From: Sphagnum compactum
Lineage: Eukaryota
Assembly (NCBI GenBank): GCA_965153455.1
Contig: OZ234493.1
Location: 24,170,213 to 24,234,212 of the forward strand
Length of the DNA stretch: 64,000 nt
Direction: 5' to 3'
The notes beneath the pieces are model-generated. The model had not been told where the DNA came from and made no database searches. It worked only from the letters and a program-made list of their open reading frames with translations. Below are positions 3,324 to 41,149 of the stretch, in pieces; the first letter of the stretch is position 1; each line of letters opens with the position of its first letter. Both the position numbers and the translations under genes were made by a program.

Positions 3324-4283
3324 TCTATATAGTATAGGACGTCGTGGTCGTGAAGCTTTGGGATGAAATGAAGCTTTCCATCCGTCCATCCGTCCTCCAT
3401 CTCGTCATCCGTCCGTCATCCATCCAAACAGAACAAATATATATTCAAAAAAGGGAATAAACTAATAATAATAATAAAAACAGAAAACACTTTAACAATT
3501 AGAAACTTTTTGTAAACACTTAAACATGAAACAAAAAAGGGAAATACAGTAAAATAATCTTAAAGGAAAATTAAAAAATAGATGACAAAAAATAAGAAAC
3601 AAAACAGAGAGCAAAAGAAAGAGAAAAAAAACCATACTTGAAAAAAAAATGAGATTTGTCTTCTTTTTCCAAACTTCAAACCTGCATCTAATCAAACAAA
3701 AATAATTTTTTTAAAAAAAATTATTTTAAAACATATTAGAAAAACTATAATTTTTTGGGAAAAGAAAATAGAAACTAAATAAAATAAATAAACGCATAAA
3801 AATAGAAAAATAAAATGAAGATAGACAAAATAAGAATAGAAAAAATTAAAACATGAAACAAACATAAACAAAAAAAAAGTAAAAACACAAAAACTATAAA
3901 AAAAGGAATGGAAACAAATGAAACAAGGAAAGGGAAATACAGTAAAATCGTTTTTAAAAAAAATTACAAAAAAGAAGAAACGAAATAAAGAGTAGAAAAT
4001 AAGAAAAAATAAAACTTATAGTAATGAAGAAAAACCCTACTTGAAAAAGAATGAGTTGTGTCTTCTTTCTCCAAACTTCAAACTTGCATCCAAGTAAACA
4101 AAAAAACAAAAGTGAAAAAGAAACACTTTATTTTTATTATACAAAATAATAATAATAATAATAATAACAGAAACACATAAAAATAAAAAATAAAAAAGAT
4201 AAAAGTTTTTTTTAAAAATTAAAACATGAACCAAACATTGTTGAAATAACACACATGTGCATTAGGCATGGGGTTCAAACTAG
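3324..4283 (+). mobile_element. probable non-autonomous Helitron-like element with A-rich ~420-bp internal repeats
   Basis: 5' TCTATATAGTATA and 3' degenerate hairpin CATGTGCATTAGGCATG ~10 nt before CTAG|T (4280-4283). Internal unit ...TTCTTTYTCCAAACTTCAAACYTGCATC occurs at ~3660 and ~4065. The 5' flank is T rather than the canonical A. Confidence 0.45.
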
Positions 4284-5229: not shown

Positions 5230-6108
5230 GGAGAGAAAAAATGAGTATCACCATTCAAAAGCACCTTATGTCCTAAAGCCTTCACTAGCAAATCAGACAA
5301 GGAAGTGAGCAAGGGAAAATTTAAAAGAGCACTTAGCTTGGAAAGGGCTTCCTTAGCAACAGCAACTTGTTTCAATATGGAGGCTACCTAAACTCTTTGC
5401 AAAACCGTTGACACCTTCTACCTATAAAATGTGTGTACCAAAATGAATACCAGATGAAAATGCCCTTGGCTAATCACATCATGTTAGCACATCGATGAAA
5501 AATATCATCAACGTATTGGTGTAAGCACCCAAGTACTTTTGTGGCAAGAAGGATAGACACATCCACTAGGTGCCAATCATGATAGAGCCTTTCCTTTACT
5601 CGGATTACAATTGTCACAATCATTTCCCAATGAATGGTAGCTTGTGAAACTAAATCTATTTTAGTGGCATTAACAATGATGACATTAACTAGAATGTGAA
5701 CCTATCAATGGAGAACATGATATCAACCCATTGAGGTGTGAAGATTGAAGGGAAGACAATGGGAAGATGATGAGAGGTTGTTCACATGAACCTCAATATC
5801 TTTGGCAATGAAATCAACAGCATCTCAAGCAACATCGAGGGAGGTAGTGTGTTCCCCTGCATGAGAACATCAAAGAAAAATGTATCCCCATTGGGTCTAT
5901 AGGCTGACAATGGGAAGATGATGAGAGGTTGTTCACATGAAACTCAATATCTTTGGCAATGAAATCAAAAGCATTTCAAGCAACATTGAGGGAGGTAGTG
6001 TGTTCCCCTGCAGGAAAACATCAAAGAAAATGTATCCCCATTGGGTTTATAGGCTAGCCACATATGCAACGGGTTAAACTAAAAGCTACTAAATGAGGGA
6101 GACCTAAC
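5230..6108 (-). pseudogene. 3' part of a decayed RLE-type (CRE/R2-like) non-LTR retrotransposon ORF (zinc knuckle and restriction-like endonuclease region)
   Basis: Minus-strand remnants INPMGIHFL*CFPAGEHTTSLNVA*NAFDFIAKDIEFHV, VDIMFSIDR..VNVIIVNATKIDLVSQA and LHQYVDDIFHRCANM fit the CCHC + PD..D RLE tail pattern from memory. Confidence 0.6.
5755..6055. repeat. ~150-bp tandem duplication within the non-LTR relic
   Basis: GACAATGGGAAGATGATGAGAGG...CCCCATTGGGT(C/T)TATAGGCT occurs at 5755-5905 and 5906-6055. Confidence 0.92.
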
Positions 6109-6598
6109 TAGTGTTGGGCAAATATCCAAATATCAAGCCTAGATATTAGCCCAAATATCACCCATGATATTTCAGTGGATGTCATTTTGGGTGGTATCTA
6201 ACTTGTCAAATATCCATTATGTGATATCATGTTCTTTGATATCTAAGGTCTATGTTATATACAAGGATCCTCATATCCAAGTCGAATATCAAATTCAAGT
6301 TTGGATTAGGATATCAAGTTAGTAATTAAGTTAATAATTAGGTTAGTAAATGATTAGGTTAGGAAAAAGAAAAAAGTTGTAGTTTGCAGCCACCACAACT
6401 TAACATTTTTCTTAATTTCTAATTTGTCGTGATGTGTAGGGTCGTGACGTTCGGTGTCGTAAGGGTGTAAATCCATAGTAAACTCTACTGAACAAAAAGA
6501 CTAAAACCAGTCAAAGGTAGAAACTAATCAACCAAAAATAGATGCACGCACATATATATACAATGCACAAGAGGAGGTAGAGATGAAATTCTCATGTA

Positions 6599-6610
6599 TC
6601 CCCCCCCCCT
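6599..6610 (-). promoter_or_regulatory. polypurine tract (candidate plus-strand primer)
   Basis: AGGGGGGGGGGA on the minus strand, ~40 bp after the pol stop and ~175 bp before the element's 3' end, where a Gypsy PPT normally lies. Confidence 0.6.
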
Positions 6611-6651
6611 AGACCTGAGCCAGGAAAAGCGTGGCATGGTCTGAATAGAAA

Positions 6652-6825
6652 TCAAACTATTGCAAGAGAACATGATGAACAGTACCAAATGCTGGCAGGA
6701 ACTTGAATGAGCTCCGGCTTGAGGCAAAATAGATGGTATCCACCATTACAATTATCGCAAAGCAGCATCTGATCAGCATCGTCTGTCCTCTGACATACTT
6801 GACATAGATAGTCAAGTGGAGGAAT
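6652..6825 (-). pseudogene. PHD finger (C4HC3) at the integrase C-terminus; not in the ORF track
   Basis: In frame after the TAG at 6826-6828 (probably a mutated TGG): IPPLDYLCQVCQRTDDADQMLLCDNCNGGYHLFCLKPELIQVPASIWYCSSCSLAIV*. All eight zinc ligands and the conserved W before the last CxxC are present. Confidence 0.93.
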
Positions 6826-8000
6826 CTAAGTCGGCGTGATGATGGTAGGATCTAAGTTCGGCAGGTGGCAAGGCGCACAGTTTTTGGAGTGATCTCGAAT
6901 TGTGCGTCCGTCAGCTCTTTGCAACTTCAACACACCTAAAGGCTTGATCGCCTTAATCCTCAAGATAGTGTGATCAGAAGAAACGTCTAGAGTATCATTA
7001 GGTTGCCGCTGGAGATACACAAAGTCACCAACATCAAATTGTTTCACCTTAGGTTTGTAAGTGCCATTTTGTGTGTGTGCATACCATAAGGTGTCTCGAT
7101 GTTGTGCAATGGACAAGTTCTCCATGGCCATGGGCATAACCCTCCTCTACGATGACCCTAGCCCAAATGGCTGGGGAGTCCAAGTCCACAACCTGGTCCA
7201 TTTGAGTAGCAATGGAAGAAGGTGGAATGGGATGTTTCCCAAAAAGTAGAAAGTAAGGAGAGAAATGAGACAAAAAGGCGTGTTTGGACATCCTGTAACC
7301 CATGGCGATGTAAGGTAGGGCCAGGTCCCAATCCTCTTTGTTCCTAGTGAGGCAAATCTTCCGAAATCCCTTCTTACATGTCTGAACCATCCTCTCTACG
7401 AGCCCATCAGGTTGGGGATGATCCCTTGAAGTCCGGCGATGGTCAATGAGAACATGATCAAGTAGGTCTTGGAATTCTCCTCTGAATTCTGATCCTTTAT
7501 CAGTAAGGCACTCAACATAAGCCCCAAACCTACTTAAGACTTGTTGTAAGAAAGCCTAGCTGGTGTTGTGTGATGACTTGTCTGGCAACGCAACAAGCTC
7601 GACCCACTTTGAAAAATGCTTAATCATAATCATGATGTAGACATTACCCTTGGAGGTCTGTGGTAACTTTTTAGCTAAATCAGATGACTAGAATATGCCT
7701 TAAATAGGGAATGGAAAAAGCATGAGCTGTCGAAAGGAGAAAAAAGTTCTCACTCTATCACATTGTTCACACCTAGCAATGACGTCTCGAACTTGAGCAT
7801 ACATACCTCTCCAATGGTAATGAGGAGCGAGAAGGCTATACGTACGCTTAACACGAAAGTGCCCAAGCTCCGACTGTACCTTCTGAATAAAACCAAGCCA
7901 TTCATGTGGTGGAGGAACCACTATGTCGCCTTGTGGTAAGCATCGGACGAGGTGATTGTCCCTCCATGGGTAGCTTTTGGACTGTTGTTGTATGCGATCT
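6826..8000 (-). pseudogene. DDE integrase with HHCC zinc-binding domain and SH3-like C-terminal region
   Basis: SELGHFRVKRTY...HWRGMYAQV...CEQC. Core DLAKKLPQTSKGNVYIMIMIKHFSKWVEL, VLTDKGSEF, HPQPDGLVERMVQT, WDLALP..MGYR, SPYFLLFG. Then FDVGDFVYL. Confidence 0.93.
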
Positions 8001-8248
8001 CGATGACTTGATGTAACTTGGGGAGGGTGTTCCCCATGCTGAAGAAACCTCAAAGTGTCCAAGTCCTCCCATATATCCACAATGGGATGTTCAACCAGGT
8101 TACGTTGCAATAGTGCAAGATAACTAGATGCATAAGATACATGTATAGCTGGAATCTGGTCGAAGTCTTGCCTGGCTTCTGAAAAATTTTCAGAAGTAGT
8201 GAGGGGTCTTTGTGACATGGTATCCACGTTCTGATGTGTAATACCAGA

Positions 8249-8600
8249 TTAGTGAATAACCTTGAACTCATACTCCTGAAGTATAAGTGCCCAACAAGCT
8301 AACTCACCAATAAACTTATCATTGGTCATCAACCATTTGATAAGCGGGTGGCTGATATACAAAGTGAACTTGGTGCCATAAAGATAGGGCCTGAAATGTA
8401 TGACAGCCCATACAACAGCAAGACACTCCCCCTCGTATGAAGAGTAGTTGCTTTCAGCCTTGTTGTTGCTTTGGGATGCATAGGCGATAACATATTCCTT
8501 GCCTTCTTCATCAAGTTGGCCGAGAATAACACTAATACCTAAAGCACTCCAATTAGTGTGTAGAATGAAGACCTTGCTGAAATCAGGTCTTCTCAAAATG
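8249..8600 (-). pseudogene. RNase H (Ty3/Gypsy type)
   Basis: PDFSKVFILHTNWS (TD>TN), VIAYAS, NYSSYEGECLAVVWAVIHFRPYLYG, WALILQEYEF. Confidence 0.93.
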
Positions 8601-8662
8601 GGGAACTCTGAAAGCTTTTCTTTGAGTGTGTTGAAAGCTTCCTAAGCTTCTTCACTCCATGT

Positions 8663-9420
8663 CTAAGCAACATCCTTATTTAAAAATGCATAAAGAGGAT
8701 GAACAATAGTCCTGAAGTCTTGGACATAAATCCTGTAGTAATTACATTGTTCGATGAAGCTCCTCAAAGTGTGAACATTAGTAGGATTGGGCATCTCCAA
8801 AATGGCTACTACTTTGGCCCAATGAGCCATAATACCATTTGACAAAATTCTATGGCCAAGGTAGACTACTAAGGTGATAGCAAATTCACACTTTTTAGGA
8901 TGGATCTTCATATTGACTTCATGGAGCCTCTTGAATAATTCCTCAAGATGAACCAAGTGCTACAGGAGTCCCTTGCTATGCACTAGGACGTCATCTATGT
9001 AGCACTTTAGGAAATCTGCCCCTTCGAGAACTTGGTCCATGATTCGCTGAAAGAAGACAGGTGCATTTTTCAATCCAAAAGGCATCACAAGCCATTCCCA
9101 CAACTTGTTGCTTCCATGGAATGCCGTTTTCTTGCGATCTTTTGCAACGAACACAATCTGGTTGAAGCCTTGTTTTAGATCCATAATTGTGAAGATGTTT
9201 AAGTCTCTAATGTTATCAAATAATTCTTCATCTGGCATTACTGTAGTGGCTGCGAAATCAAAACTTGATGGTTGAATGAGACTAGCCTCATGGAGCTTTT
9301 TGCATCTTTCATCTACCATTCATTCTTATTCAACCTATGCCTCCTCCGATAGATGGGTGTCTCATCTGTAAGGTCTATAGAGAACTGCATGGTCTTACAC
9401 CTACCTAAGTCTTTCATTGA
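8663..9420 (-). pseudogene. reverse transcriptase (Ty3/Gypsy type); disrupted with an internal deletion
   Basis: Motifs MDLKQGFNQI, KTAF, VMPFGLKNAPVFFQRIMD, YIDD (9001-8990), KCEF..VVYLGH and LRSFIEQCNYYRIYV. The usual K..R.C.DYR.LN...D.YP.P segment is missing between TTVMP and DEELFD. Confidence 0.95.
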
Positions 9421-9825
9421 GAATGCGAACACATTCTCATACTTAATTAGCAAGTCTGTGACCCGATCTCTTTCCTTCTTGGTGAGCTGGTTCCCCATAA
9501 CGAAAGGGTAGTCAAAAACACATGGAATGGAGTTGGAAAGTGTGTTTGAAGAACCTGGTGTATTGGGTTGTCCATTATCCAACTGCGTAGATTCGTAGAA
9601 GGTTGTAATTGTTTCTCCAGAAGCTGATGTACCTCCAAATGTATTAGAAACAACTTGAGTCAAATTACATGGTACCTCCTCCCCACCAACACTAAGAGTG
9701 AAGTGTTGAGTGTTGAAGATAGGCAAGTGTATTTGGTCGGGGTGCCATGTAGTCGCATCGCCAAAACTACAAGCTGATTGAATCAGTGCTAGTGTTGTGT
9801 ACATTTGAATGAGTACACAAGTTAC

Positions 9826-10770
9826 CAACAACCATGTAAGGGAGTTCAAATCCATGCCTCTCCCCAGTAGAACGTTATGCTCCAATCTAATCACCTTGGT
9901 GTGACTAGTAGTGCCAGTTTGGAACCCCATAGCCCTTTTTCTTTCTTCTAGGCTTGGTTCATCCCAAGTGGTTGAAGCATGATGATACACCACGCTTGGT
10001 CCATCTCCTTGAAAGGCGTGTGCTCTTGGGAAGGAGACAAAGTTGGGCCAAGCACCTCTTGGTTTTCCTATTGTGTTCGCAGGACACCAAGGAGGTTTTT
10101 CTTGCCTTGTAACTGGTTGGCAAGAGCTTTGATCATCCAATATGTGATAAACCTGCAGGTGGGGGTTTCTGATGGTGTATCTCAAAGCCAACTGCAGATT
10201 TAAGAATGGTGCAAGGTTGGTCCACCAGTTGCACAGTTGGTGCGCATAGGAACTGCATTGTGCCGCATCGAATAAGAGCGGTTCTCCAAGGTAATGCTTG
10301 ACCAGCGTGTAGTGCTCCTGGACTTTCTCCCTTTGGTCAAGTTGAAAATGGGTGTTCTCAATTACATAACCAAGTGTAGGAGAAATGGATTGAGCCTAGG
10401 TGATTAATCGTACCATGTCCGTGAAAAGATCCGATCTTGTGTCACTCAAATCTTTTCCAGATCCAACCGCTGAAAATCCTTGACATTCCCAACCTAAAAT
10501 GATGAAATCGACGAGGCCAAGTAATTCCATATGCTTCTTCTAAATTAGTTGTATGTCAGAGGGTAAGAAAGTGAAACTGGCCTTCCATGCGGTGGTTGCA
10601 AATTGTTGTGGAAATCTGGCTATGAGCTCCATCATTCTGATGCCGCCACTTGCCTTGCAATAGGATCAATGTCTACATAGAAATACTTCCGAACCACCAT
10701 CCTTGACTGTAGTAGGGCTTCGAGACCTATACCAATACCACCAAAGAGCTCTAGTAATGTAATCCCCTCT
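9826..10770 (-). pseudogene. C5 cytosine DNA methyltransferase domain (DNMT3-like) embedded in pol between protease and RT
   Basis: Manual translation gives the motifs in order. I: LLELFGGIG (10757-10731). II: YFYVDID. III: PSDI. IV: VDFIILGWECQGFS (Cys 10485-10483). V: RSDLF. VI: YVIENT (ENT 10359-10351). VII/VIII: FDAAQCSSYAHQLCNWWTNL. IX: EPSLEERKRAMGF. X: LLGRGMD. One frameshift (~10640) and two TAG stops. Confidence 0.93.
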
Positions 10771-10981
10771 TTAGGCGATGTCCAAGTGATTAGCTGACGA
10801 AGTACCAGTCTAATCGGTTCGCCATGGCTCTCCATGTTCTTAAAACTAGACAAAGTTTTGACCAAAGGCTCGTGGGCTGCTTTGAACCTCTATAAAATCT
10901 TTGGTCCGTGTTGAATGTTAGTAGGAACCACCCTCAAGCTTTTAGTAGCTTGGGCATAAGCTGTCTCCTCTTCATCTCCTT

Positions 10982-11458
10982 CTATCGACTCGTGGCTAGC
11001 TTGTTGGATGTAGGAAATGGTGTGTGCTTCCTTGAGCATACAATGGTGAACCATAGGATTATGGTTCCCATGTAAATCAAGGGTATGTATCCCAGGTGGT
11101 GGCCATTAGTCTCCCAATCCACTCGGTAGTACACATGCTCGAACCAATTGTCAATTGTGAAACTTGGTGGAAACAGGGCCTCTTGCCCAATGAGCACATT
11201 GTAACTGGTGGCATTTGTGACTAAACATTTGACCTGTAGGCAAAGCTCCTGATCTGTACTTTCATTGAAATTAAGTGCAATCAAATCTGAGCTCTCCCCA
11301 AATACCTCCTCTGCGCTCCCACTAGTAGTGCGAATTTGCCACATAGATTTTCGTAGTTTGGAGTCGAACATGCCCATCTTCTTGGCAAATTGAACTCTAA
11401 GAATCACTCGTTGGGCACCTGTATCAAGAAGTACCACTTTGGGTGTATATCCTCCCAC
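10982..11458 (-). pseudogene. retropepsin-like aspartic protease domain of pol
   Basis: PKVVLLDTGAQRVIL active-site motif and downstream YNVLIGQEAL (ILG-type motif). Confidence 0.88.
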
Positions 11459-11620
11459 CTAGATTGCTAACTCAATATTGTCAACAATGGCAACTCTGGT
11501 GGCGATGGAAGTTCTCTCACTAGGCACCACGTTCAAAAATGAATGAAAGACTTTGTGGAGAGAATGGCTATCCACAACGCCTTTGCTAAATAAGAAATCC
11601 ACAAGTGAAGTGTTCTTAGT

Positions 11621-13925
11621 TCACTTCTGATATCTGAATGTAGAATCAGAGGTAGGAGAGCCCACTAGTTTAGCCATGTTAGAACTAGTGACCAGATTAC
11701 GAACGCCATCTGCAACACATGAGTTAATCGAGTGTCTCTCCAAGGTGTTGGATGAGACCCTTGTAGCATGTGGATCAGGGATTGGTAGAAGACCAAACGT
11801 AGTGTTCAGGGTATCCTTTAGTATTGCAATTATGTCCTTAGTGCTTAACTTCAAATCTTGAAAACTAAACAACAGTGTACTCACAAGCTTTTGCGCCACT
11901 TCACACATTTGAAGTTGGCACTCCATAAGCTGATCAGTGGAAAATTGTGTGTTTTCCTGATGTACGTGTACTCCTAGGACACAAAAATTTGATGCCCTAG
12001 TAGCTTTTTGTGTAGTAGTCTCCTCCCCCCTCGCCAACAAGGTGCGTTCTTTTCCGTGTTGAGAGGACGAAAAGATTATGGCATGACTACTCGAACTCCT
12101 CTAGCCTTGGTAATAGGACTTGAACTAGATGCAAGTCCATCAGTTTGAATTACTTGCCTAATGGTAGAAACTGTAGGTGCCACATTAGCCTCTTGTGCCG
12201 CGAAGTAAGAAAGGCAAAAAGAAGTGGCAAATTTTGGTGTGAAACTTAAATTATGTGCATTAAAAAGAATATACTCCCGAACCATGGCATCGTGTGAGAC
12301 GCCATAGAACGAGCTAGGAGGTCCCTCCCGTGATCTTGAACCCTGTACAGGTTGAGAATGACTAGCTGGTTGGGAAGACTTGCTTTTTAGATTAGCAAGT
12401 TGGGCCCTTAATGATTCGAGTTCATTTTGTAGAGTTTGAATTTGAGCGGCATGGGCTTGAAGCACCTCCCTCTTGTCAGCATTGTGCTCCTTCTTTTTAG
12501 CATTCTTACTAGAATTACCCTTGGTGGGGAAAGCCTGAGTGGAAGGCTGAGGTGTTTTGGCTTTTGGTTGAGGGGCAGTGGAAGATGCTGGCAGATTTTG
12601 CCATGGTAATCGAAGTTACTTTCCGTTCCGAGAACTTGACAAAGCAAACAGCTTCCTGATGTTCTTCTTTCCCACAATAATCACAAAAGAGATCCTCGAA
12701 AGGAATGTTGCAGTCACTAGATTTATGGGCAAGATTGCCATAGTAGTTGCAAGAAGGTAGGATGGGTGTAACCGAGTGCACCGATTTAGCCCTTGAAAAA
12801 GAATGTGATGATCTGGTTGGCGTAGCTGGTGGAGGCTGAGGCCATGAACATGATGGAGGCCTCATAGTACTAGCCTCATAATGTGCATGAGCTAGTTCCA
12901 GCTTTTCAAAAATGTTGTACACATCTAGCAAAGTGTACGAATCTCCAAATTCTACAAACACCCGTTGTAAAACCTACACATGGACTGTCAGAGTACTTTC
13001 CAACGAACAAAGATACCGATGGGCAACTTATAGGTCTATGATGTTCTAAGTATCCTCTTTAAGGTTGAGAAGCCTCTTATAGAACATCTTGAAGGTTTCA
13101 TCCTTCTGCCGATAGAAGGTGGCGAGTTGCAAAAAAATTCAGAACTTTTGACCGGAAATTCTAGCTCAAGAACTCGAAAGAATTCCCTCACTGGATCAGC
13201 AAAACTTGGTGCATCGATGGTGGGAGGAATGTTTGCGGTAGTAACAATGAGTTGTTCAGGAGAAAGGTTTATTGAAGTAGGTACCGGATTTGGATTATTG
13301 GGCACAATCCAATGATGTGCAATGGCAGCTTCCAGTGCAGCTTGAGAGGCGGTGGCGATGGCTGTGGCATAAGCTGGATTGGGGATTTGGGTGACGCCCA
13401 AAATCCTCGGAGAATGTTGCTCGTGGACATCCAATGCCTCATAGTGCACATAACGAACTAGTTATTTGAATGTGAATGTCTCGATGTAATTAGCGCCATA
13501 CTTGAACTCCAATTCACAAACCATGGTTGAGAAAGTTGCCTTGAACTCCCTCAAAAAAATGGTACCTGGCCTTCCGCTAAATTTCTCAATTCTCTCAGAA
13601 GAATTCCTGACCTCCATGGTGTATATGGGTGTACAGGTAACGCCTTGTAGCGAAATATATGGTGATGGTGTGAAGTTGGTGCGGCAGCAGGCGTACCCCA
13701 CTAATTAACCCTTCCAAATGGACTCTGATGTACCGTTGATGTAGTGTAACTTAAACCTAAATTCCTTATAGGAGTTGTACTAAATGACGGTGGTGTTGTA
13801 AACGCTTCATGGTACCATCGTGAAGATCGTGAGCTTAAAGAAATCGACTCAAATGATTGTGTGTTGCTTCATAGCTAATACCTTGGTTCTGGCTGAGCAG
13901 TAGTGCTCTCATCATCCGAAGACAT
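11621..13925 (-). pseudogene. gag: gag-like polyprotein region with two CCHC zinc knuckles and a coiled-coil stretch; disrupted
   Basis: Fragment IEKFSGRPGTIFLREFKATF, knuckles SCNYYGNLAHKSSDC (degenerate) and FCDYCGKEEHQEAVC (ORF 12515-12961), and coiled coil QIQTLQNELESLRAQLANLK. Candidate ATG at 13925 (MSSDDESTTAQPEP). Several stops and frameshifts. Confidence 0.75.
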
Positions 13926-14100
13926 GGTGTTCTCCCGTGCCCCAAAATTTTGTAGCAATACAGAGCACTAGTTACAAAGTTTTAACACAACATGTGGTTT
14001 GAAGAATACGGTGCGTCGACGAGGATGAACGATGACTGACGGACGTCGGTGGACAGTAGGGGCCAGACGAACGGACGTGGACGAAACTATGACAATCGTT

Positions 14101-14198
14101 GAACGGAACAAAGACGAACGTCAAATGAAACGATCTGAACCGGAACGGACCAAAGATGAACGTCAGATGAAACGATCCGAACCGGAACGGACCAAAAT
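14101..14198. repeat. 42-bp CpG-rich tandem repeat (~2.3 copies) in the element's 5' leader
   Basis: GAACGGAACAAAGACGAACGTCAAATGAAACGATCTGAACCG / GAACGGACCAAAGATGAACGTCAGATGAAACGATCCGAACCG / GAACGGACCAAAAT. Confidence 0.9.
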
Positions 14199-14740
14199 AG
14201 ATTGAAACAAAACGGAACGGAACGGACGGCGCTACAAAGCAATCCGTGTCCGTAAACTCTACAATGATGGCCTGGATGTAAATCAGTGCGTAGATGCTTA
14301 GTGGGTACTTAGTAAGCGTGAGTGAGATCGGAAGCTTAGGCTTGTAAAAGCTTGTAGTAGTAACCACCATGGGCTTTTCCGATGTCCCTTCTCCCTCGCT
14401 TAAGTTGTTCCTAATTATTGTTGTTGTTCCAATTGTAGCTGCAGTACAAGAGTAAAAAATAAAAATAAAATAACAACAACTCTAAAACACAAGAAACCAA
14501 CAAGCAAAAAAAACCCAAGAAACTCAAAGCCAGGAAAAAGCTGTCGCTTTCAACATTAAATGACATAGAGCAATTTTTCTAAAATTAAATTGAAAAGAAA
14601 GAAAGAAAACGTAGTGTATGTAAACGGTAGTCATGTAATAGTCGTCGTGAGCATCTAGAAACCAGTCTAACTATGGAGGAAAAATTTTGCTGACAAAAAA
14701 ATTCTAGAAAACTTAACATGAAAAGGGAAGAGCTTGGCTT

Positions 14741-14855
14741 TTTATATAGCCGTCAACAAGCTGAAACCCTAAACAAGCCATAACCCTAAAAGACTTAATA
14801 GCATATTGTAACCTAAAAATGTACATTAACCTTAAGCGCGTACATTAACCCTAAA
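14741..14855 (-). promoter_or_regulatory. candidate element promoter: TATA box with upstream telo-boxes
   Basis: TATATAAA on the minus strand at 14741-14748. AAACCCTA at 14764-14771 and AACCCTAA near 14782 and 14848. All lie within ~180 bp of the element's 5' end. Confidence 0.5.
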
Positions 14856-16441
14856 AGGCATGATTGACATGCCTGTAACCGCCCATCATGTAAGAGGCCA
14901 TGTATACGGGCATGACAAATTCTCTTTCATTCTTAATTTTAATTTTTTTTTTCTTTTTTTTGTATTTTTTCTTTGCTCTATTCTCACACTGTACTTACCC
15001 TTTCCTTGGCCTCTTGCAAGTTATTGTAACATTTGAAGTAAGTTTTTGTTTTCATTCTTTTGTTTCCTCTTTTCTATTTTTATTTTTTCCATTTTTCTAT
15101 TTCTTGAAGTAAAGTGTTTCTTTTTTTTATTTTTGTATTTTTTTTGATTGGATGTAGGTTTAAAGTTTGAATAAACAAGACAAATCGCATTCTTCCTTAG
15201 GTTTTTTTTTTCAATACTATAAAAATAAAAATAAATTGTTTGCTCTCTATTTCGTTTCTTTTTTTTTTAATTTATAAAAAAATGTGTTCAACTATATTCC
15301 CCTTCGTTTATTTCATTTGTTTCCATTCCTTTTTCTTCTTCTTCTTTTGTTTATGTTTGTTTCATGTTTTCCTTTTCTTCTATTTTTATTTTATCATGTT
15401 TTCATTTTTAAAATATTTTTATGTGTGTTTTTTTTTCAATTTTCTTTTTCAAAAAAATTAATGTAAAAAATTTAGTATAAATAGAGTGTTTGTTTTTAAC
15501 TTTTGTATTTTTGTTTGTTTAGATGTTGGTTTGAAGTTTGGAGAAAGAAGACAAACCTCATTATTTTTCAAGTATGGTTTATTTTCATTACTATAAGCTT
15601 GTTTTCTCTTTTTTTTGCTTTTTGATTTGTTTTTTTTTTCTTTTAAAAATATCTTTACTGTATTTCCCCATTTTTGTTTCATGTTTGAATCTTTTTGAAT
15701 CTTTTTTTCATTTTTTTCATTTTTTCTGTTTTAAAATTTAAATTTTTTTTTGTTTCTGGTTTTCTTACTAATTTTCATTTTATTTTCTATTTCTATTCTA
15801 TTTTCTGGCTTTTTTCCTTGTTTGTATTTTGTATTTTTTTGGTTTTTTTCTTTTTTGTTACAACTTTGTTTCATTTTATTTTCTTTTTAATAACTTGTGT
15901 TCTTCTTCTTTAACTTGAAATCTATTGTGTTGTTTCTTTTTTTTTCTTCTTGTTTCTCAAAAAAATTCATATTTTTTTAGTTTTAATTTTAATTTGATTT
16001 TATTTTTTAAAATTGCAAGACTACATGAGCTTTCTAAGTTTTTCAGCCTTCACATTGTAAAGGATTATTATATTTTTTACTTTTGGCTTGTCATAGTCAT
16101 TTTTTGATATGAAGGGAGTGAAAAATGAGTGCTCATGTACTTTGGAAATGTTTTGTAAATGTTTGCATGCGCACATTTTAGATTTTAGGATTTTTTTTCA
16201 AACCTTTTGTGTAAACTTGTTTTAAATCCAAGTTGTTGATATTTGAAACCGATATCTGATTGAAAAATAACAACAAATATTAGGTAGATTGATATCCTAG
16301 TTGAATAAAAAACTTAAAAATATGATATCCGGCCTAGATATTTAAATTGGAAAATAAATTCTAATATCTAGTTTAAATAAATAATTTTGACATATCCTTA
16401 TCTAACAGATATCACAAAAAGATGATATTTGCCCAACATTG

Positions 16442-33719: not shown

Positions 33720-36100
33720 AGAAACCTTTTAGCTATCCTAAATATAAGAAAGACTCTGATCTAGATGCTCATGTACGAGTATTCAAAGCCACTATCAAAG
33801 CTAATTATGAAATGATAGATGAGGAAATAACAAATCTATTCAATTTTACATTGAAAGACAATGGATCAAATTGGTGCAATAACTATATGCGAAATCATCC
33901 AAATTGTAAATTTGTAGATTTAGAATAGGTTTCTTGTAGACAATATTGGATTTTGGGAATAGAAGATAATCCACAATCAATTAACGTGAATGCCCAATTG
34001 GTTGAGGAAAACATGAGTTCTTTGATAAAGTTGTTGATTGAGTACAAGGACATCTTTGCATGGACATATAACGACCTAAAGGTCATACTTCCAAAATTTG
34101 CACAACGCCATATTGAGTTCGGCACATCAATTCCACCAACACATTAGGCCATGTACAAAATGAATCAAAATTATGTTGCGGCTATTAAATTAGACATAGA
34201 TAAACTATTGGAAGCTAAATTAATATAACATGTAGAAAAAGCTATTTGGCTGTCACCAATAGTGGTGACTCCTTAAAATAATGGAAAACTTAGATCCTAT
34301 GTAAATTTCAAAAAACTAAATGTAGCCACAAAGAAAGATCCATACCCATTCCCTTTTTCTAAAAGATGTTCTAAACGTTGTTGCAAGGCATGATGTTATT
34401 CCTTTTTAAATGGATACTTTAGATATCACCAAATATTTATAACACCAGAGGACATATACAAGATAACCTTTGTAATAGAGATACTCTCGATATCACCAAA
34501 TATTTATAGCACTAGAGGACATATACAAGATAACCTTTGTAATAAGGAGCTTTTACTTGGGTAGTGATGCCATTTGGAGTGAAAAATGGACCTCCTACTT
34601 ACCAAAGGGTAGTAAGTAAAGCCTCCAAAGATTATTTGGACAAATTCATGAAGATTTTTCTAGATGATTTCATTATTTATAATGACATGGATACTCATCT
34701 AGATAAGCTTAAACTATGCTTCCAAAATTGCAAAGAATTTGAGATTAATTTGAACCTAGTAAATGTGCCTTGAAAACTTTATAGTATTTTCAAGGATGAT
34801 ACTAGGGTTTATAGTATCCAAGGTAAACTAGTAGTTTGTAAGAAAATCTAAGCCATAGTTTAGATGTTTGTACCCACAAATCCATAGCAAATTTAGGTAT
34901 TCAACTGAGTGGCTTGGTTCTATAAATGTTTCATCAAGAATTCTACATTCATAATGGCCTCAATTACTAAACTCATGAAAAAGATAGAATAATTTCTATG
35001 GACCCCCAAGTGTTAGGTAATTTAGGAGTTGATAAAGCAAAAATATATAAAAACACCTATTCTCATATCTCCAAATGGGGATATAGAGTTTCATGTTCAT
35101 ACAGATGCATCATTATTAGTTGTTAGTAACATAGAATCTAACAGGGAAGCATGATAAGCCTATTGTTTACGCTTTTAGACTTTTAAATAGAGTATAGAGA
35201 AATTACAATACCATAGTACAAGAAGCTTTAACAATGGTATTCACATTTCATACGTTCACACATTACTTACTAAATAATAAGTTTGTGTCCTATGTTGATC
35301 ATATGGCTTTGGTATATTTAGTGAACAAACCACATGTTTTAGGTTGTATTACTAGATGGTTACTTTTATTTTTGGAGTATGAATTCACAACTAGGACATA
35401 TACATGTAGTGGCAAATGCGTTATCTAGGTTACCATACATAATAAAATTGATAGGAATACCTAATCAAACCATAGATGTAACTTTGTTCAATTATAGTTG
35501 ATTTGGTTGGAAGAGGCCAAGGATTATTTATAGACATGACAAATGCCTAAAATCCTAACCAACACTTTAAAATAAAGGCTAGCAAAAAAATTAGAAACTT
35601 TTACGATACAAGATGAAATTATATACCCAAATGGATTAGGACAATAGATTTCAACGCTACATGTATAAAAGATCTTGCGGCAATTCCATGAGGGTTTTGT
35701 AAGTGGCCATTTGCAACAAACATCGTTGCAAAGATCTTAGATGTAGGATATTAGTGGCCCACACTATTTAATCACACTACAAAATATTGTAGATCTTGTG
35801 ACAGCTACCAATGAGTTGGAGGTTCAACAACACAAAATTTGGCTAAGTTAGTCACTACTTTCCTAGGATAACCATTTATGAAATGAGGATTGGATTTCAT
35901 TGGACCAATCAAACTAACGTGATGGTTCACATGTAATAAATATATTATTGTAATCATAGATTATGCTACCAAATGGGTGGAGGCCAGGGTGCTTTAAATG
36001 AATACTATGGCTCGACCACAACAAAAAAATTTGTGAATATATTTTGACTCACCTTAGTGACAAATCAAGGAGTTCATTTTATTAATGATGTTCTTAAGTA
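33720..36100 (+). mobile_element. heavily decayed Ty3/Gypsy (non-chromovirus, Athila/Tat-like) gag-pol remnant
   Basis: gag YPKYKKDSDLDAHVRVFKATIKAN...FNFTLKD; DIFAWTYNDLK; MPFGVKNGPPTYQR...IFLDDF; FHVHTDAS; YVDHMALVYL...RWLLLFLEY; PFMK*GLDFIGPI; IDYATKWVEA; TNQGVHF. The protease region is deleted (~33950) and there are many stops. Confidence 0.88.
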
Positions 36101-39075: not shown

Positions 39076-39224
39076 GTTTTGTTGTGCTCATATATTAATT
39101 TTTCACTTCTATACGTTTCCACTTTCTGTGGTAGTCTCTAAAATAAGAAATACCTTTTGCCATAAGATGGTAGCTACCATTGGTAGACATGAGATTTGAG
39201 GTCTATAAGGAAGGCAACGTTGTT

Positions 39225-39600
39225 TTAAATGGTAGGCAATAACCACAAAGGGTTTGAAGGCAATATAGATAGTAGGCAACAACCACAAAGGATTTGAAAT
39301 TGTTGTAGATGGTAGGCAATAACCACAAAGGATTAGAAGGCATTATAGATAGTAGGCAACAGCCACAAAGGATTTGAAATTGTTGTAGATGGTAGGCAAT
39401 AACCACAAAGGGTTTGAAGGCATTATAGATAGTAGGCAACAGCCACAAAGGATTTGAAATTGTTGTAGATGGTAGGCAATAACCACAAAGGATCTCCAAG
39501 CATTACAAACAGTAGGCAACATTCACAAAGGGTTTGTAGGCATTGTAGATGATAGGAAGTAGCCACAAAGGATTTGTAGGCACTATAGATGGTAGGCAAC
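39225..39600. repeat. 40-bp minisatellite (~10 units) with alternating A/B monomers
   Basis: (G/A)GTAGGCAA recurs at 39231, 39271, 39311, 39351, 39391, 39431, 39471, 39511, 39551 (degenerate) and 39591. Confidence 0.95.
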
Positions 39601-40079
39601 AATTGTACGAGGTCTAAAAGTGGTTATGGGTCTTTTTCAAGTCTATAAAGGACAGTAGTTTGCTATAGGACGGTAGTTATAACATGATCTTAAGCAAAGA
39701 AAAAGTAGTCCTTACCTTCAAGTCTTTCCATTTTTCTTATTATTTTTTTCTAATCCAACAACCATTTGCATGTTAGTAATTAAGTTGCCACATCCCGCAA
39801 TTTTACACATACAACAATAAAGAAAAATGGGGAAAAAATTAGGGATTATTTTTGGTGTGACATCATGAACTTCATAATAAAAAAGCTATCCATGATGTTT
39901 AAAATAAACTAAGCAGAAAAAATACATTTACATAAATGTATAATAGTTTAGTATATGAAAAATTTATAATTTATAATTTTACATACATCTTGGAGTTTGC
40001 ATGCATGAACATTTTGACCTAATCACTAACCCATACAAATATAAATGTGAAACTTACCAAGATTATATACATGCATTTC

Positions 40080-40820
40080 AAGAAATTATGATGAGTGCAT
40101 AATGCGACTCATGAATAATGGATGTAACACATTCAAAATGAATGATTCAACTCCAATGCAATTATTGTTAATAGTTCAAGAAATGTGAAAAAACTCACTA
40201 GTATGTTGTTGTGTGTGTTTCAATATATACTAATAAATGTAATATGCAACATTTGAGTAATGGTTTCAATTAGTCCAAAGTGAATGATTCAACTCATGTA
40301 CACATGTTGACAATTGAAAAGATGTGAAAAAAAACATTAATTCATTCCAATATAATTGCAAAACATTAAATTGCATGTGTTTTAATATATTTTGATAAGT
40401 TCAAGATGCAACCTTTGAATAATAGTTTTAACATATTAAAAGTGAATAGTTCAACTCATGTACACATGTTGACAATTGAAAAGATGTGAAAAAAATCACT
40501 AATTCATTCCAATATAATTGCAAATCACTTAATTGCTTGTGTTTTAATATATTTTAATAAGTGCAAGATGAAAAATTTGAGTAATAATTATAGTATATTG
40601 AAAGTGAATAATTCAACTCATGTACACATGTTGACAATTCAAAAAATGTGAAAAAATCATTAACTCATTCTAGTATAAATGTGAGGTCTTAAATTGTTAC
40701 ATTTCTTTTAATAAATAATGATAAGTGTAAAATGCAACCCATGAACCATGGTTTCGAAATATTAAAAGTGAATGTCTCAAATCATGTACCACATTGACAA
40801 TTGAAAAGATGCCAAAAAAA
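40080..40820. repeat. ~161-163-bp AT-rich satellite-like tandem array (~4-5 units)
   Basis: AAAGTGAAT..TTCAACTCATGTACACATGTTGACAATT starts at ~40278, 40439, 40601 and 40765, with a degenerate copy at ~40135. Confidence 0.9.
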
Positions 40821-41149
40821 CACTGACCATGCATTATAGTGCATTGTGTAGATAAAGTTAAAGGCTACCTCAATTTCCATTTCAAAAATAGGGTTCAAAT
40901 GATACTCATAATTGAACATAATGAATTTTACAACTATAAACAATATTGACCATTAATTAATGCAATAAGAGATTTGCAAACTTAAGAAGACCATATGTGG
41001 TTAAAATGTAATCAAATCGAATAGTACAGTTGCAATGTGTGGGGGTGGAAAAAGGACAAGATTTCTTCTCATGATAGAATGAAATGTTTATCCCCTTTTG
41101 CTACTAAAAAATGCAACAAAAATTAACTCCATGGCCTTTGACAAATCAT

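Follow-up and report, generated by a model that had tools for sequence, protein, structure and literature searches.

Retrotransposons of the DIRS, Ngaro and PAT-like groups carry split direct repeats in the order A1-ORFs-B1-A2-B2 (ORF, open reading frame). Tyrosine-recombinase retrotransposons make, to our knowledge, no target duplication. Some retrotransposons also encode a DNA methyltransferase (DNMT) of their own. In the passages of de Mendoza et al. (2018, Nat Commun 9:1341, PMC5890265) on which we draw, a Dnmt3-type domain is reported in the Gypsy Pol of Klebsormidium nitens (KnitGypsy-Dnmt3), an element that combines DIRS-like repeats with the Gypsy domain set (legend of their Fig. 4c). 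The same passages describe DIRS elements of Symbiodinium whose enzymes gave de novo CG methylation in yeast, and the authors proposed self-methylation of the complementary DNA (cDNA). Here we analysed a stretch of 64,000 nucleotides (the window), for which an initial annotation had claimed a methyltransferase inside a retrotransposon pol and had cited a precedent in Klebsormidium; KnitGypsy-Dnmt3 is indeed such a precedent. Positions 6425-14917 of the window are one Ty3/Gypsy-type retrotransposon with gag, protease, C5-cytosine methyltransferase, reverse transcriptase (RT), RNase H, integrase and PHD finger. We read it, with a probability of about three in four, as a dead, old copy of a high-copy Ty3/Gypsy-type family of a moss, most likely Sphagnum, with an integral DNMT3-like domain in pol.

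The methyltransferase domain and its family

The initial annotation had listed nine motifs of C5-cytosine methyltransferases (C5-MTases) in order. All of these strings are present in the minus-strand translation, split over two frames: LLELFGGIG and YFYVDID share one frame (10889-10632, minus strand), while SDI, GWECQGFS, RSDLF, IENT, DAA..AHQLCNWWTNL, EERKRAMGF and LLGRGMD lie in the next (10650-9826). A single frame change near 10638 splits the domain, since the first piece matches residues 689-772 of the open relative P0169 (76% identity) and the second continues directly with residues 773-1085 (72%). The arginines that had been supplied in brackets for motif VIII are found in the relatives (AHRLRNWWTNL), whereas the window copy has Gln and Cys at these positions. 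In addition, the window-copy domain contains two in-frame TAG stops, read as X in P0001, and tblastn gave three stops in 10638-9298. The domain had also been described as continuing in frame into the linker before RT. This holds for the ORF 10395-9313, but in the window copy another frame change follows at ~9300-9319, before RT; in the relatives P0122, P0169 and P0299, DNMT and RT share one frame. When the larger piece of the window copy was read through, with X at the stops, it matched the Pfam domain PF00145 at E 1.1e-8 and scored 35.3 bits, where the cut-off is 22, so that the check proposed for the domain turned out positive; the unjoined pieces gave no Pfam match. The PF00145 gathering cut-off was also passed by the relatives P0122, P0123, P0124 and P0299. 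Pfam placed the protease and RT on either side of the domain, as had been claimed (Table 1).

We then asked which methyltransferases the domain resembles. A profile was built from an alignment of 16 domains that are 30-45% identical to its first row (plus two close ones) and was compared with all solved chains. The best matches were DNMT3A (9.3e-25), DNMT3C (9.3e-23) and DNMT3B (2.7e-21), followed by tobacco DRM (5e-13), Arabidopsis DRM2 (1.8e-10), M.HhaI (3.5e-10) and DNMT2 (4.7e-7), and no solved DNMT1 chain was found at E 0.01 or better. The DRM chains cover only positions 4-134, half of the profile, as expected because the motifs of DRM are rearranged, while those of the moss family run from I to X. 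With the window-copy domain alone, the best solved relative was again DNMT3A, weakly (E 0.011). An AlphaFold2 model of the P0169 domain, from a relative 72-76% identical to the window copy, was predicted from the alignment with a pLDDT of 91.1 and a pTM of 0.90. The top Foldseek matches listed for this model were all DNMT3B, 3A or 3C (E 5.6e-18, TM 0.71/0.79, ~20% identity). A homodimer prediction for the domain scored 0.00, which counts neither for nor against. Judged against solved structures, the domain thus appears closer to DNMT3 than to DRM, DNMT1, DNMT2 or the bacterial enzymes. With animal DNMT3A, 3B and 3C, its best profile and fold matches, it has the motif order I-X and the signatures around motifs VIII-X in common. 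It differs from them in its ~20% identity, in the lack of PWWP and ADD domains, in a motif IV that reads Trp-Glu-Cys and in a longer stretch between motifs VIII and IX (a domain of 327 residues versus about 285).

A word-indexed protein search gave 315 matches at E 0.001 or better. The 120 of these that were listed are 66-85% identical, and the only named one is from Sphagnum compactum. Several relatives carry the domain in uninterrupted frames together with other retrotransposon domains: DNMT, RT and RNase H in P0122 (820 aa), gag, protease and DNMT in P0123 (1,214 aa), and gag, protease and DNMT into RT in P0169. In the more distant P0299 (2,188 aa), zinc knuckle, protease, DNMT, RT, RNase H and integrase all lie in one open frame. 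We read the single gag-pol frame of intact relatives as gag, protease, DNMT3-like methyltransferase, RT, RNase H, DDE integrase and PHD finger. Metagenome contigs were scanned with P0122, and at least 586 stretches of 600 candidates encode a relative. The best 80 of these stretches (L001-L080) were used as loci, and together with the window copy they make up the 81 copies referred to below. The loci are not independent insertions, as in some cases one insertion was sampled twice (for example L067/L068 and L027/L028). By tblastn, all 81 copies cover at least 537 of the 820 codons of P0122, with a median of 817.

These data bear on the most obvious alternative, that a fragment of a host DNMT3 gene became nested in the element by chance. 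The initial annotation had named such a fragment, or other copies without the domain, as the outcome that would overturn its claim, and neither was found. The domain has no intron and no target-site duplication (TSD) of its own, and 569 representative clusters match it at E 1e-30 or better, mostly polyproteins. Because the same DNMT-RT fusion is encoded in at least 586 stretches and relatives have open frames from protease through DNMT to RT, we consider a nested host gene ruled out, with practically no probability left to it. The DNMT appears instead to be an intron-less, integral pol domain common to the whole moss family, and its DNMT3-like character and its place in pol, both claimed initially, are supported by PF00145, by the DNMT3A-best profile, by the predicted fold and by the same fusion in relatives.

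In two DNA runs the summed contig depth was 1e4-1e5 within the element versus ~10-50 in the flanks; these values are not copy numbers, but since they lie far above the flanks, they show that the repeat is very abundant. Part of the stretch is also contained in runs labelled 'moss metagenome', and this, together with the named Sphagnum match, makes a moss host very probable. Contigs of two RNA libraries (727 and 139 pieces) covered 29 and 25 of 30 bins of the stretch; in the flanks, the bin 6000-6313 had a depth of 0 in both libraries and the bin 15106-15400 had 2.08 and 0. As the family is so abundant and DNA carry-over is possible, this coverage does not establish transcription.

The features of the window copy are collected in Table 1; they were read from minus-strand stop-to-stop ORFs (6.8-13.7 kb), a three-frame translation and Pfam. 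The bounds of the element are marked by an abrupt fall of the blastn coverage by the 80 related loci at 14917 and 6425. The order of protease, RT, RNase H and a DDE integrase in pol, which defines Ty3/Gypsy elements, was found with Pfam in the window copy and its relatives together. The integrase core of the window copy itself gave only rve_3 at E 0.13, and rve is clear in relatives. No phage-integrase match of the tyrosine recombinase type was found by Pfam in the window copy or its relatives; the H2C2 zinc domain and rve are present instead. Gag contains a Cys/His zinc-knuckle-like stretch in the ORF 12973-12515, and Pfam searches with the gag pieces and three other long ORFs of the window gave nothing meaningful. 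Repeat A has a TATA-like box, GGCTATATAAAAAGCC, at ~14752-14737. Within the 5' untranslated region, ~14040-14500 has no counterpart in most other copies, and two tandem 42-mers lie at 14101-14184.

Table 1. Anatomy of the retrotransposon copy, in window positions
Feature	Position	Strand	Remarks
Whole retrotransposon copy, short form A-internal-B'	6425..14917	-	8,493 bp; TGTCATG start, CACGACA end
Upstream TSD, AATT	14918..14921	-	4 bp; read at element end
Downstream TSD, AATT	6421..6424	-	4 bp; read at element end
Terminal repeat A	14584..14917	-	334 nt; recurs after B' in other copies
5' untranslated region	13618..14583	-	between repeat A and gag ATG
Gag region	11459..13617	-	ATG 13617-13615; aligned by eye to the P0123 N-terminus; broken by frame changes
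Aspartic protease	11174..11437	-	PF13975 E 1.8e-5, 25.7 bits (below the 28.2 cut-off); PF13650 E 0.002
DNMT3-like C5-cytosine methyltransferase	9799..10778	-	motifs I-X in canonical order; motifs, PF00145, family profile, fold
DNMT-RT linker	9287..9798	-	conserved in the family; no Pfam match
Reverse transcriptase	8846..9286	-	PF00078 E 9.2e-17 and 4e-4, two ORF pieces
RNase H	8270..8641	-	PF17917 E 5.5e-32; PF17919 E 6.2e-31
Integrase	7049..7888	-	H2C2 zinc domain 7888-7748 (PF17921 E 8e-12); decayed catalytic core ~7555-7049
PHD finger, C-terminal end of pol	6670..6804	-	PF00628 E 5.7e-13, 49.1 bits
Polypurine run, A and ten G	6600..6610	-	directly before repeat B'
Terminal repeat B'	6425..6599	-	175 nt; twice (B'-NN-A-B') in 22 other loci

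Split direct repeats and target-site duplications

Identical direct long terminal repeats (LTRs) at both ends, a further property of Ty3/Gypsy elements, were not found: a self-comparison of the window showed no direct repeat common to the two ends of the window copy, and other copies read A...B'-A-B'. Two AT-rich stretches, 3522-4133 and 15686-15107, form an inverted match of 626 nt at 73.6%. They lie outside the target duplications and hence outside the element, and were taken as a low-complexity repeat, not as LTRs. In other loci the full form of the element is A-internal-polypurine-B'-NN-A-B', in which NN stands for two unrelated bases. Here the first ~300-335 nt of the element are repeated as a second A, two bases after the ~175-nt B', and the second B' copy begins with exactly the position that follows the polypurine run. 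When the 45 loci with the 3' end in view were compared, 22 had B'-A-B', two had B'-A only and 21 ended at B' like the window copy. B' was never found in front of the 5' A (0 of 37 5' ends of A). The joint between A and B' (14584 to 6599) is present in contigs of two DNA runs, and AATAAA occurs in repeat A of some copies.

The element ends are of the TG...CA type (TGTC...GACA). At the start of A and the end of the last B' we compared 12 pairs of 4-bp TSDs: eight were identical, three had one mismatch and one, from L017, where the inner B' was taken, did not match. As a control, the next four bases outward gave a full match in 0 of 12 pairs. By eye, both the full and the short form carry target duplications. 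Within one element the two A copies (A1 and A2) are 0.83-0.92 identical (mean 0.878), compared to 0.820 between elements, and in nine of 13 elements the best match of an A copy is its own partner. Since the A copies are closest within their own element, A1 and A2 probably had the same sequence when the element inserted, and these insertions are old. We conclude that the family has no LTRs and that its elements end in split direct repeats bordered by 4-bp target duplications, a combination that is new here.

An ordinary LTR retrotransposon whose order of A and B' is spurious, created by tandem arrays, nested insertions or the assembly, could produce a similar picture, given that metagenome contigs can be chimeric and that some loci represent one insertion sampled twice. 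However, B'-NN-A-B' occurs with identical junction positions in 22 loci from several data sets, B' is absent in front of all 37 5' A ends, the 4-bp TSDs border the start of A and the end of the last B', and the window copy, which comes from a genome assembly, shows the same ends. We therefore regard such an artefact as very improbable.

For the split repeats themselves the following scheme can be drawn. A transcript from A1 to A2 would read R-U5-internal-PPT-U3-R (PPT, polypurine tract), which would make B'-NN-A the equivalent of an LTR. Ordinary reverse transcription would then yield B'A-internal-B'A, a form that was never seen integrated. At the junction of B' and A lies a near-palindrome, ...CAYGACA-NN-TGTCATG..., and the integrase would cut there, inside the B'-NN-A unit. 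A circle with two such units, opened at one site, would give A-internal-B'-NN-A-B', and a circle with one unit would give A-internal-B'. Alternatively, the short form would result from recombination between the two B' copies of the full form. That B'-NN-A is the LTR equivalent and that the integrase opens circles with one or two 'LTRs' at the inner near-palindrome is a tentative proposal drawn from the arrangement of the repeats, and we put the odds somewhat against it. No tRNA genes were found in the window.

Constraint, decay and possible function

The initial annotation had raised release by the protease or packaging in the particle, and methylation of new cDNA or insertions, all of which are putative. 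In our reading the DNMT would be made within the polyprotein and then freed by the protease, which is the default expectation because it follows the protease in a single polyprotein. The freed enzyme would methylate cytosines, probably in CG, on its own cDNA or on fresh insertions. Following the proposal set out in the relevant part of PMC5890265, such self-methylation may be the most likely mechanism, although we hold it at a little below even odds. It presupposes an enzyme, and the conservation of the domain is consistent with this. The 16 aligned domains all share Cys-Gln in motif IV, Glu-Asn in motif VI, His-Arg in motif VIII and Glu..Glu..Gly in motif IX, and nearly all of them also share the second arginine of motif VIII and the first glycine of motif I. 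Because catalytic residues have been kept over such deep divergence, an enzyme is favoured over a scaffold.

A scaffold was considered nevertheless. The DNMT fold might have been kept as a DNA- or chromatin-binding module of pol, for instance as a tether of the pre-integration complex, without methyl transfer. The glutamate of motif IV, where nearly all C5-MTases have proline, would fit such a pseudo-enzyme, as would the failure of KnitGypsy-Dnmt3 to methylate in yeast, reported in the part of PMC5890265 used here. On the other hand, the catalytic Cys is found in 16 of 16 domains, preceded by Glu in the moss family and six others and by Pro in seven, so that some relatives keep the canonical Pro-Cys; and the motif VI Glu-Asn, the motif VIII Arg pair and the motif I glycine, like the Cys, are invariant or nearly so at 30-45% identity. 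A mere scaffold would not need catalytic residues, and we consider a pseudo-enzyme unlikely.

An active enzyme might also have another target, either host chromatin in trans, for example near insertion sites and together with the PHD finger, or RNA. A PHD finger accompanies the DNMT in each of the two clades of related polyproteins described below, and methylation of RNA was raised for a LINE-borne DNMT in the passages of PMC5890265 considered. Yet the best matches of the domain are DNMT3-type DNA enzymes and not DNMT2, and within pol it is the integrase end, not the DNMT, to which the PHD finger is fused. We judge such a target improbable as well, and self-methylation of cDNA or fresh insertions remains the mechanism we favour. 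In chromoviruses, chromodomains act as integration-targeting readers. By analogy, the PHD finger of the moss family is more likely to be an integration-targeting reader too; PHD fingers are described in the part of PMC8557442 seen as a common accessory of Chlamydomonas transposons.

A number of observations weigh against the reading of an integral, working methyltransferase in a family that spreads through circles. At least five frame changes and at least 14 stops interrupt the window copy from gag to RNase H (tblastn segments), and both arginines of its motif VIII are lost. Only five of the 80 loci contain a plus-strand ORF of at least 400 aa, and the DNMT codons are free of stops in only four of the 81 copies. 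The window copy and most other copies are dead, which speaks against a live function here. In the moss family and many of its relatives, motif IV has Trp-Glu-Cys in place of Pro-Cys. No methylation was obtained in yeast with the Klebsormidium enzyme, a result that the authors called inconclusive in the part of PMC5890265 cited above. No tRNA-type primer site (TGG) was recognised by eye after A in four aligned copies and the window copy, and the evidence for the circle model is entirely anatomical.

The substitutions among copies and the CpG content belong to the same side of the balance. Pairwise dN/dS (Nei-Gojobori) was 0.41 for both the DNMT and RNase H, while the linker had 0.46 and RT 0.38. 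The value of 0.41 was rejected as proof of selection on the DNMT: out-of-frame codons as controls gave 0.45 and 0.68, and the plain signal is therefore mostly a transition bias (the ratio of transitions to transversions among copies is 3.86). We then split the changes by type in 800 sampled pairs of 3,240. For the DNMT, in-frame dN/dS was 0.77 for transitions and 0.60 for transversions, compared to 0.78-1.11 and 1.34-1.54 out of frame. For RT and RNase H together it was 0.68 and 0.81 in frame, compared to 0.90-1.15 and 1.04-1.31 out of frame. Selection on the DNMT among copies thus gives a weak, modest signal that is no weaker than that on RT, and the divergence among copies is mostly decay after insertion. 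The deep conservation of the catalytic residues appears to be the stronger argument for constraint.

The observed/expected ratio of CpG reaches 0.53 within the element, compared to 0.27 elsewhere in the window. CpG depletion was rejected as a trace of self-methylation, as the flanks are more depleted than the element; for the same reason these figures say nothing about who methylated. The element copies are probably methylated, old and decaying repeat DNA.

Outside the element, the CpG observed/expected ratio is 0.24-0.36, GpC is ~0.9-1.0, and there is hardly any ORF of 130 aa or more; this part of the window looks like old, methylated, repeat-rich DNA. A second decayed Gypsy-type RT and RNase H lies at 33986-35410 on the plus strand. 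It is 20-36% identical to that of the DNMT family, and no DNMT match lies nearby. Self-comparison revealed tandem arrays at 39220-39601, 40214-40824 and 5755-6055, with periods of ~40, ~162 and 151 nt, respectively.

Distribution in the green lineage and comparison with known systems

When 1.84 billion representatives were searched with the profile, 22,680 proteins matched at a threshold of E 0.001; of these, 3,521 remained at 1e-10 and 569 at 1e-30. Each of the best 150 matches covers the whole domain (at least 295 bits), and many are polyproteins of 1,000-3,456 aa. In 207 fetched proteins with a DNMT match, protease (PR), RT and integrase (IN) were placed by BLASTP. The most frequent orders were RT-DNMT-IN (65), DNMT alone (59), DNMT-IN (30), PR-DNMT (24) and RT-DNMT (20); rarer were DNMT-RT (4), PR-DNMT-RT (2), DNMT-RT-IN (2) and PR-DNMT-RT-IN (1). 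Beyond the moss family, the methyltransferase is also carried by a far greater number of Gypsy-like elements from green algae and streptophytes. The PHD finger at the C-terminus likewise recurs in many distant relatives that carry the DNMT.

Of the 207 DNMT domains, the 180 with 270 or more aligned residues were used for a FastTree, and the 27 shorter ones were left out. The tree, which has no bootstrap, was split at its midpoint, and both sides had an SH-like support of 93. One side, with 43 rows including the window family, contains only PR-DNMT, DNMT-RT or unassigned orders, and its named members are Sphagnum and strains of Closterium. The other side, with 137 rows, contains only RT-DNMT, DNMT-IN or unassigned orders, and its named members are the Sphaeropleales green algae Scenedesmus, Hariotina, Chromochloris and Monoraphidium. 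The PHD finger occurs on both sides. Klebsormidium was not among the named matches, most matches carrying no name. That the Gypsy DNMT domains form two clades matching two domain orders is a lead from one quick tree. With two architecture clades and representative clusters in the hundreds, DNMT-bearing Gypsy elements would seem to have a much wider distribution in the green lineage than is apparent from the literature searched.

The initial annotation had also suggested that the family persisted into land plants. A moss host is very probable, but persistence from charophytes does not follow, as the nearest relatives outside Sphagnum are at most 45% identical. One may go further and picture a DNMT-Gypsy lineage from conjugating green algae (Closterium) to mosses in which a DDE integrase opens circular cDNA at the palindrome, leaving 4-bp duplications, and the element's own DNMT methylates before or at integration. 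We regard this combined scenario as doubtful. If true, these elements would combine a DIRS-like circular route with an integrase of the retroviral type and would themselves write the silencing mark of the host, in a land plant.

Retrotransposons with a DNMT of their own, the enzyme by which hosts silence them, have been known from one charophyte alga and from dinoflagellates, and a high-copy peat-moss family places the phenomenon in land plants. Judged by titles, the literature searched reports no such element in moss or Closterium, though supplements may list more taxa. Sphagnum has good genomes and is easily used for methylome work, which makes it testable whether the elements methylate their own DNA and whether they are thereby hidden or tamed. 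Split repeats together with a DDE integrase and target duplications raise the separate question of how the elements are copied and inserted.

As the integral pol DNMT is found also in wider green Gypsy-like elements, the moss family is therefore best regarded as a counterpart of KnitGypsy-Dnmt3. As far as that element is described in the passages of PMC5890265 drawn upon, both have an intron-less, non-rearranged Dnmt3-type domain inside the Pol ORF, many copies, a streptophyte host and a DIRS-like order of terminal repeats. The moss family differs in its land-plant host, the two having been compared by description. Ka/Ks of KnitGypsy-Dnmt3 is given there as <0.2, whereas the ratio among the moss copies is not clearly low, and a PHD finger, present in the moss family, is not mentioned in those passages. 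SymbioDIRS-Dnmt3 of Symbiodinium, from the same part of PMC5890265, resembles the moss family in its Dnmt3-type domain in pol and its A-coding-B-A... repeats, but uses a tyrosine recombinase, in contrast to the DDE integrase, H2C2 zinc domain and 4-bp target duplications found here.

The DIRS, Ngaro and PAT-like elements share the order of terminal repeats with the moss family; they encode a tyrosine recombinase, whereas a DDE integrase, TG...CA ends and 4-bp TSDs characterise the moss family. Chromoviruses and the Chlamydomonas PHD elements, the latter as described in the part of PMC8557442 seen, have a reader domain at the C-terminus of pol, as does the moss family, which unlike chromoviruses carries a PHD finger instead of a chromodomain and a DNA methyltransferase in addition. 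Elements of this kind were thus already known, to the extent covered by the passages of PMC5890265 used here; new are the land-plant host, the reading of the split repeats with an integrase and target duplications, the PHD finger and the two architecture clades.

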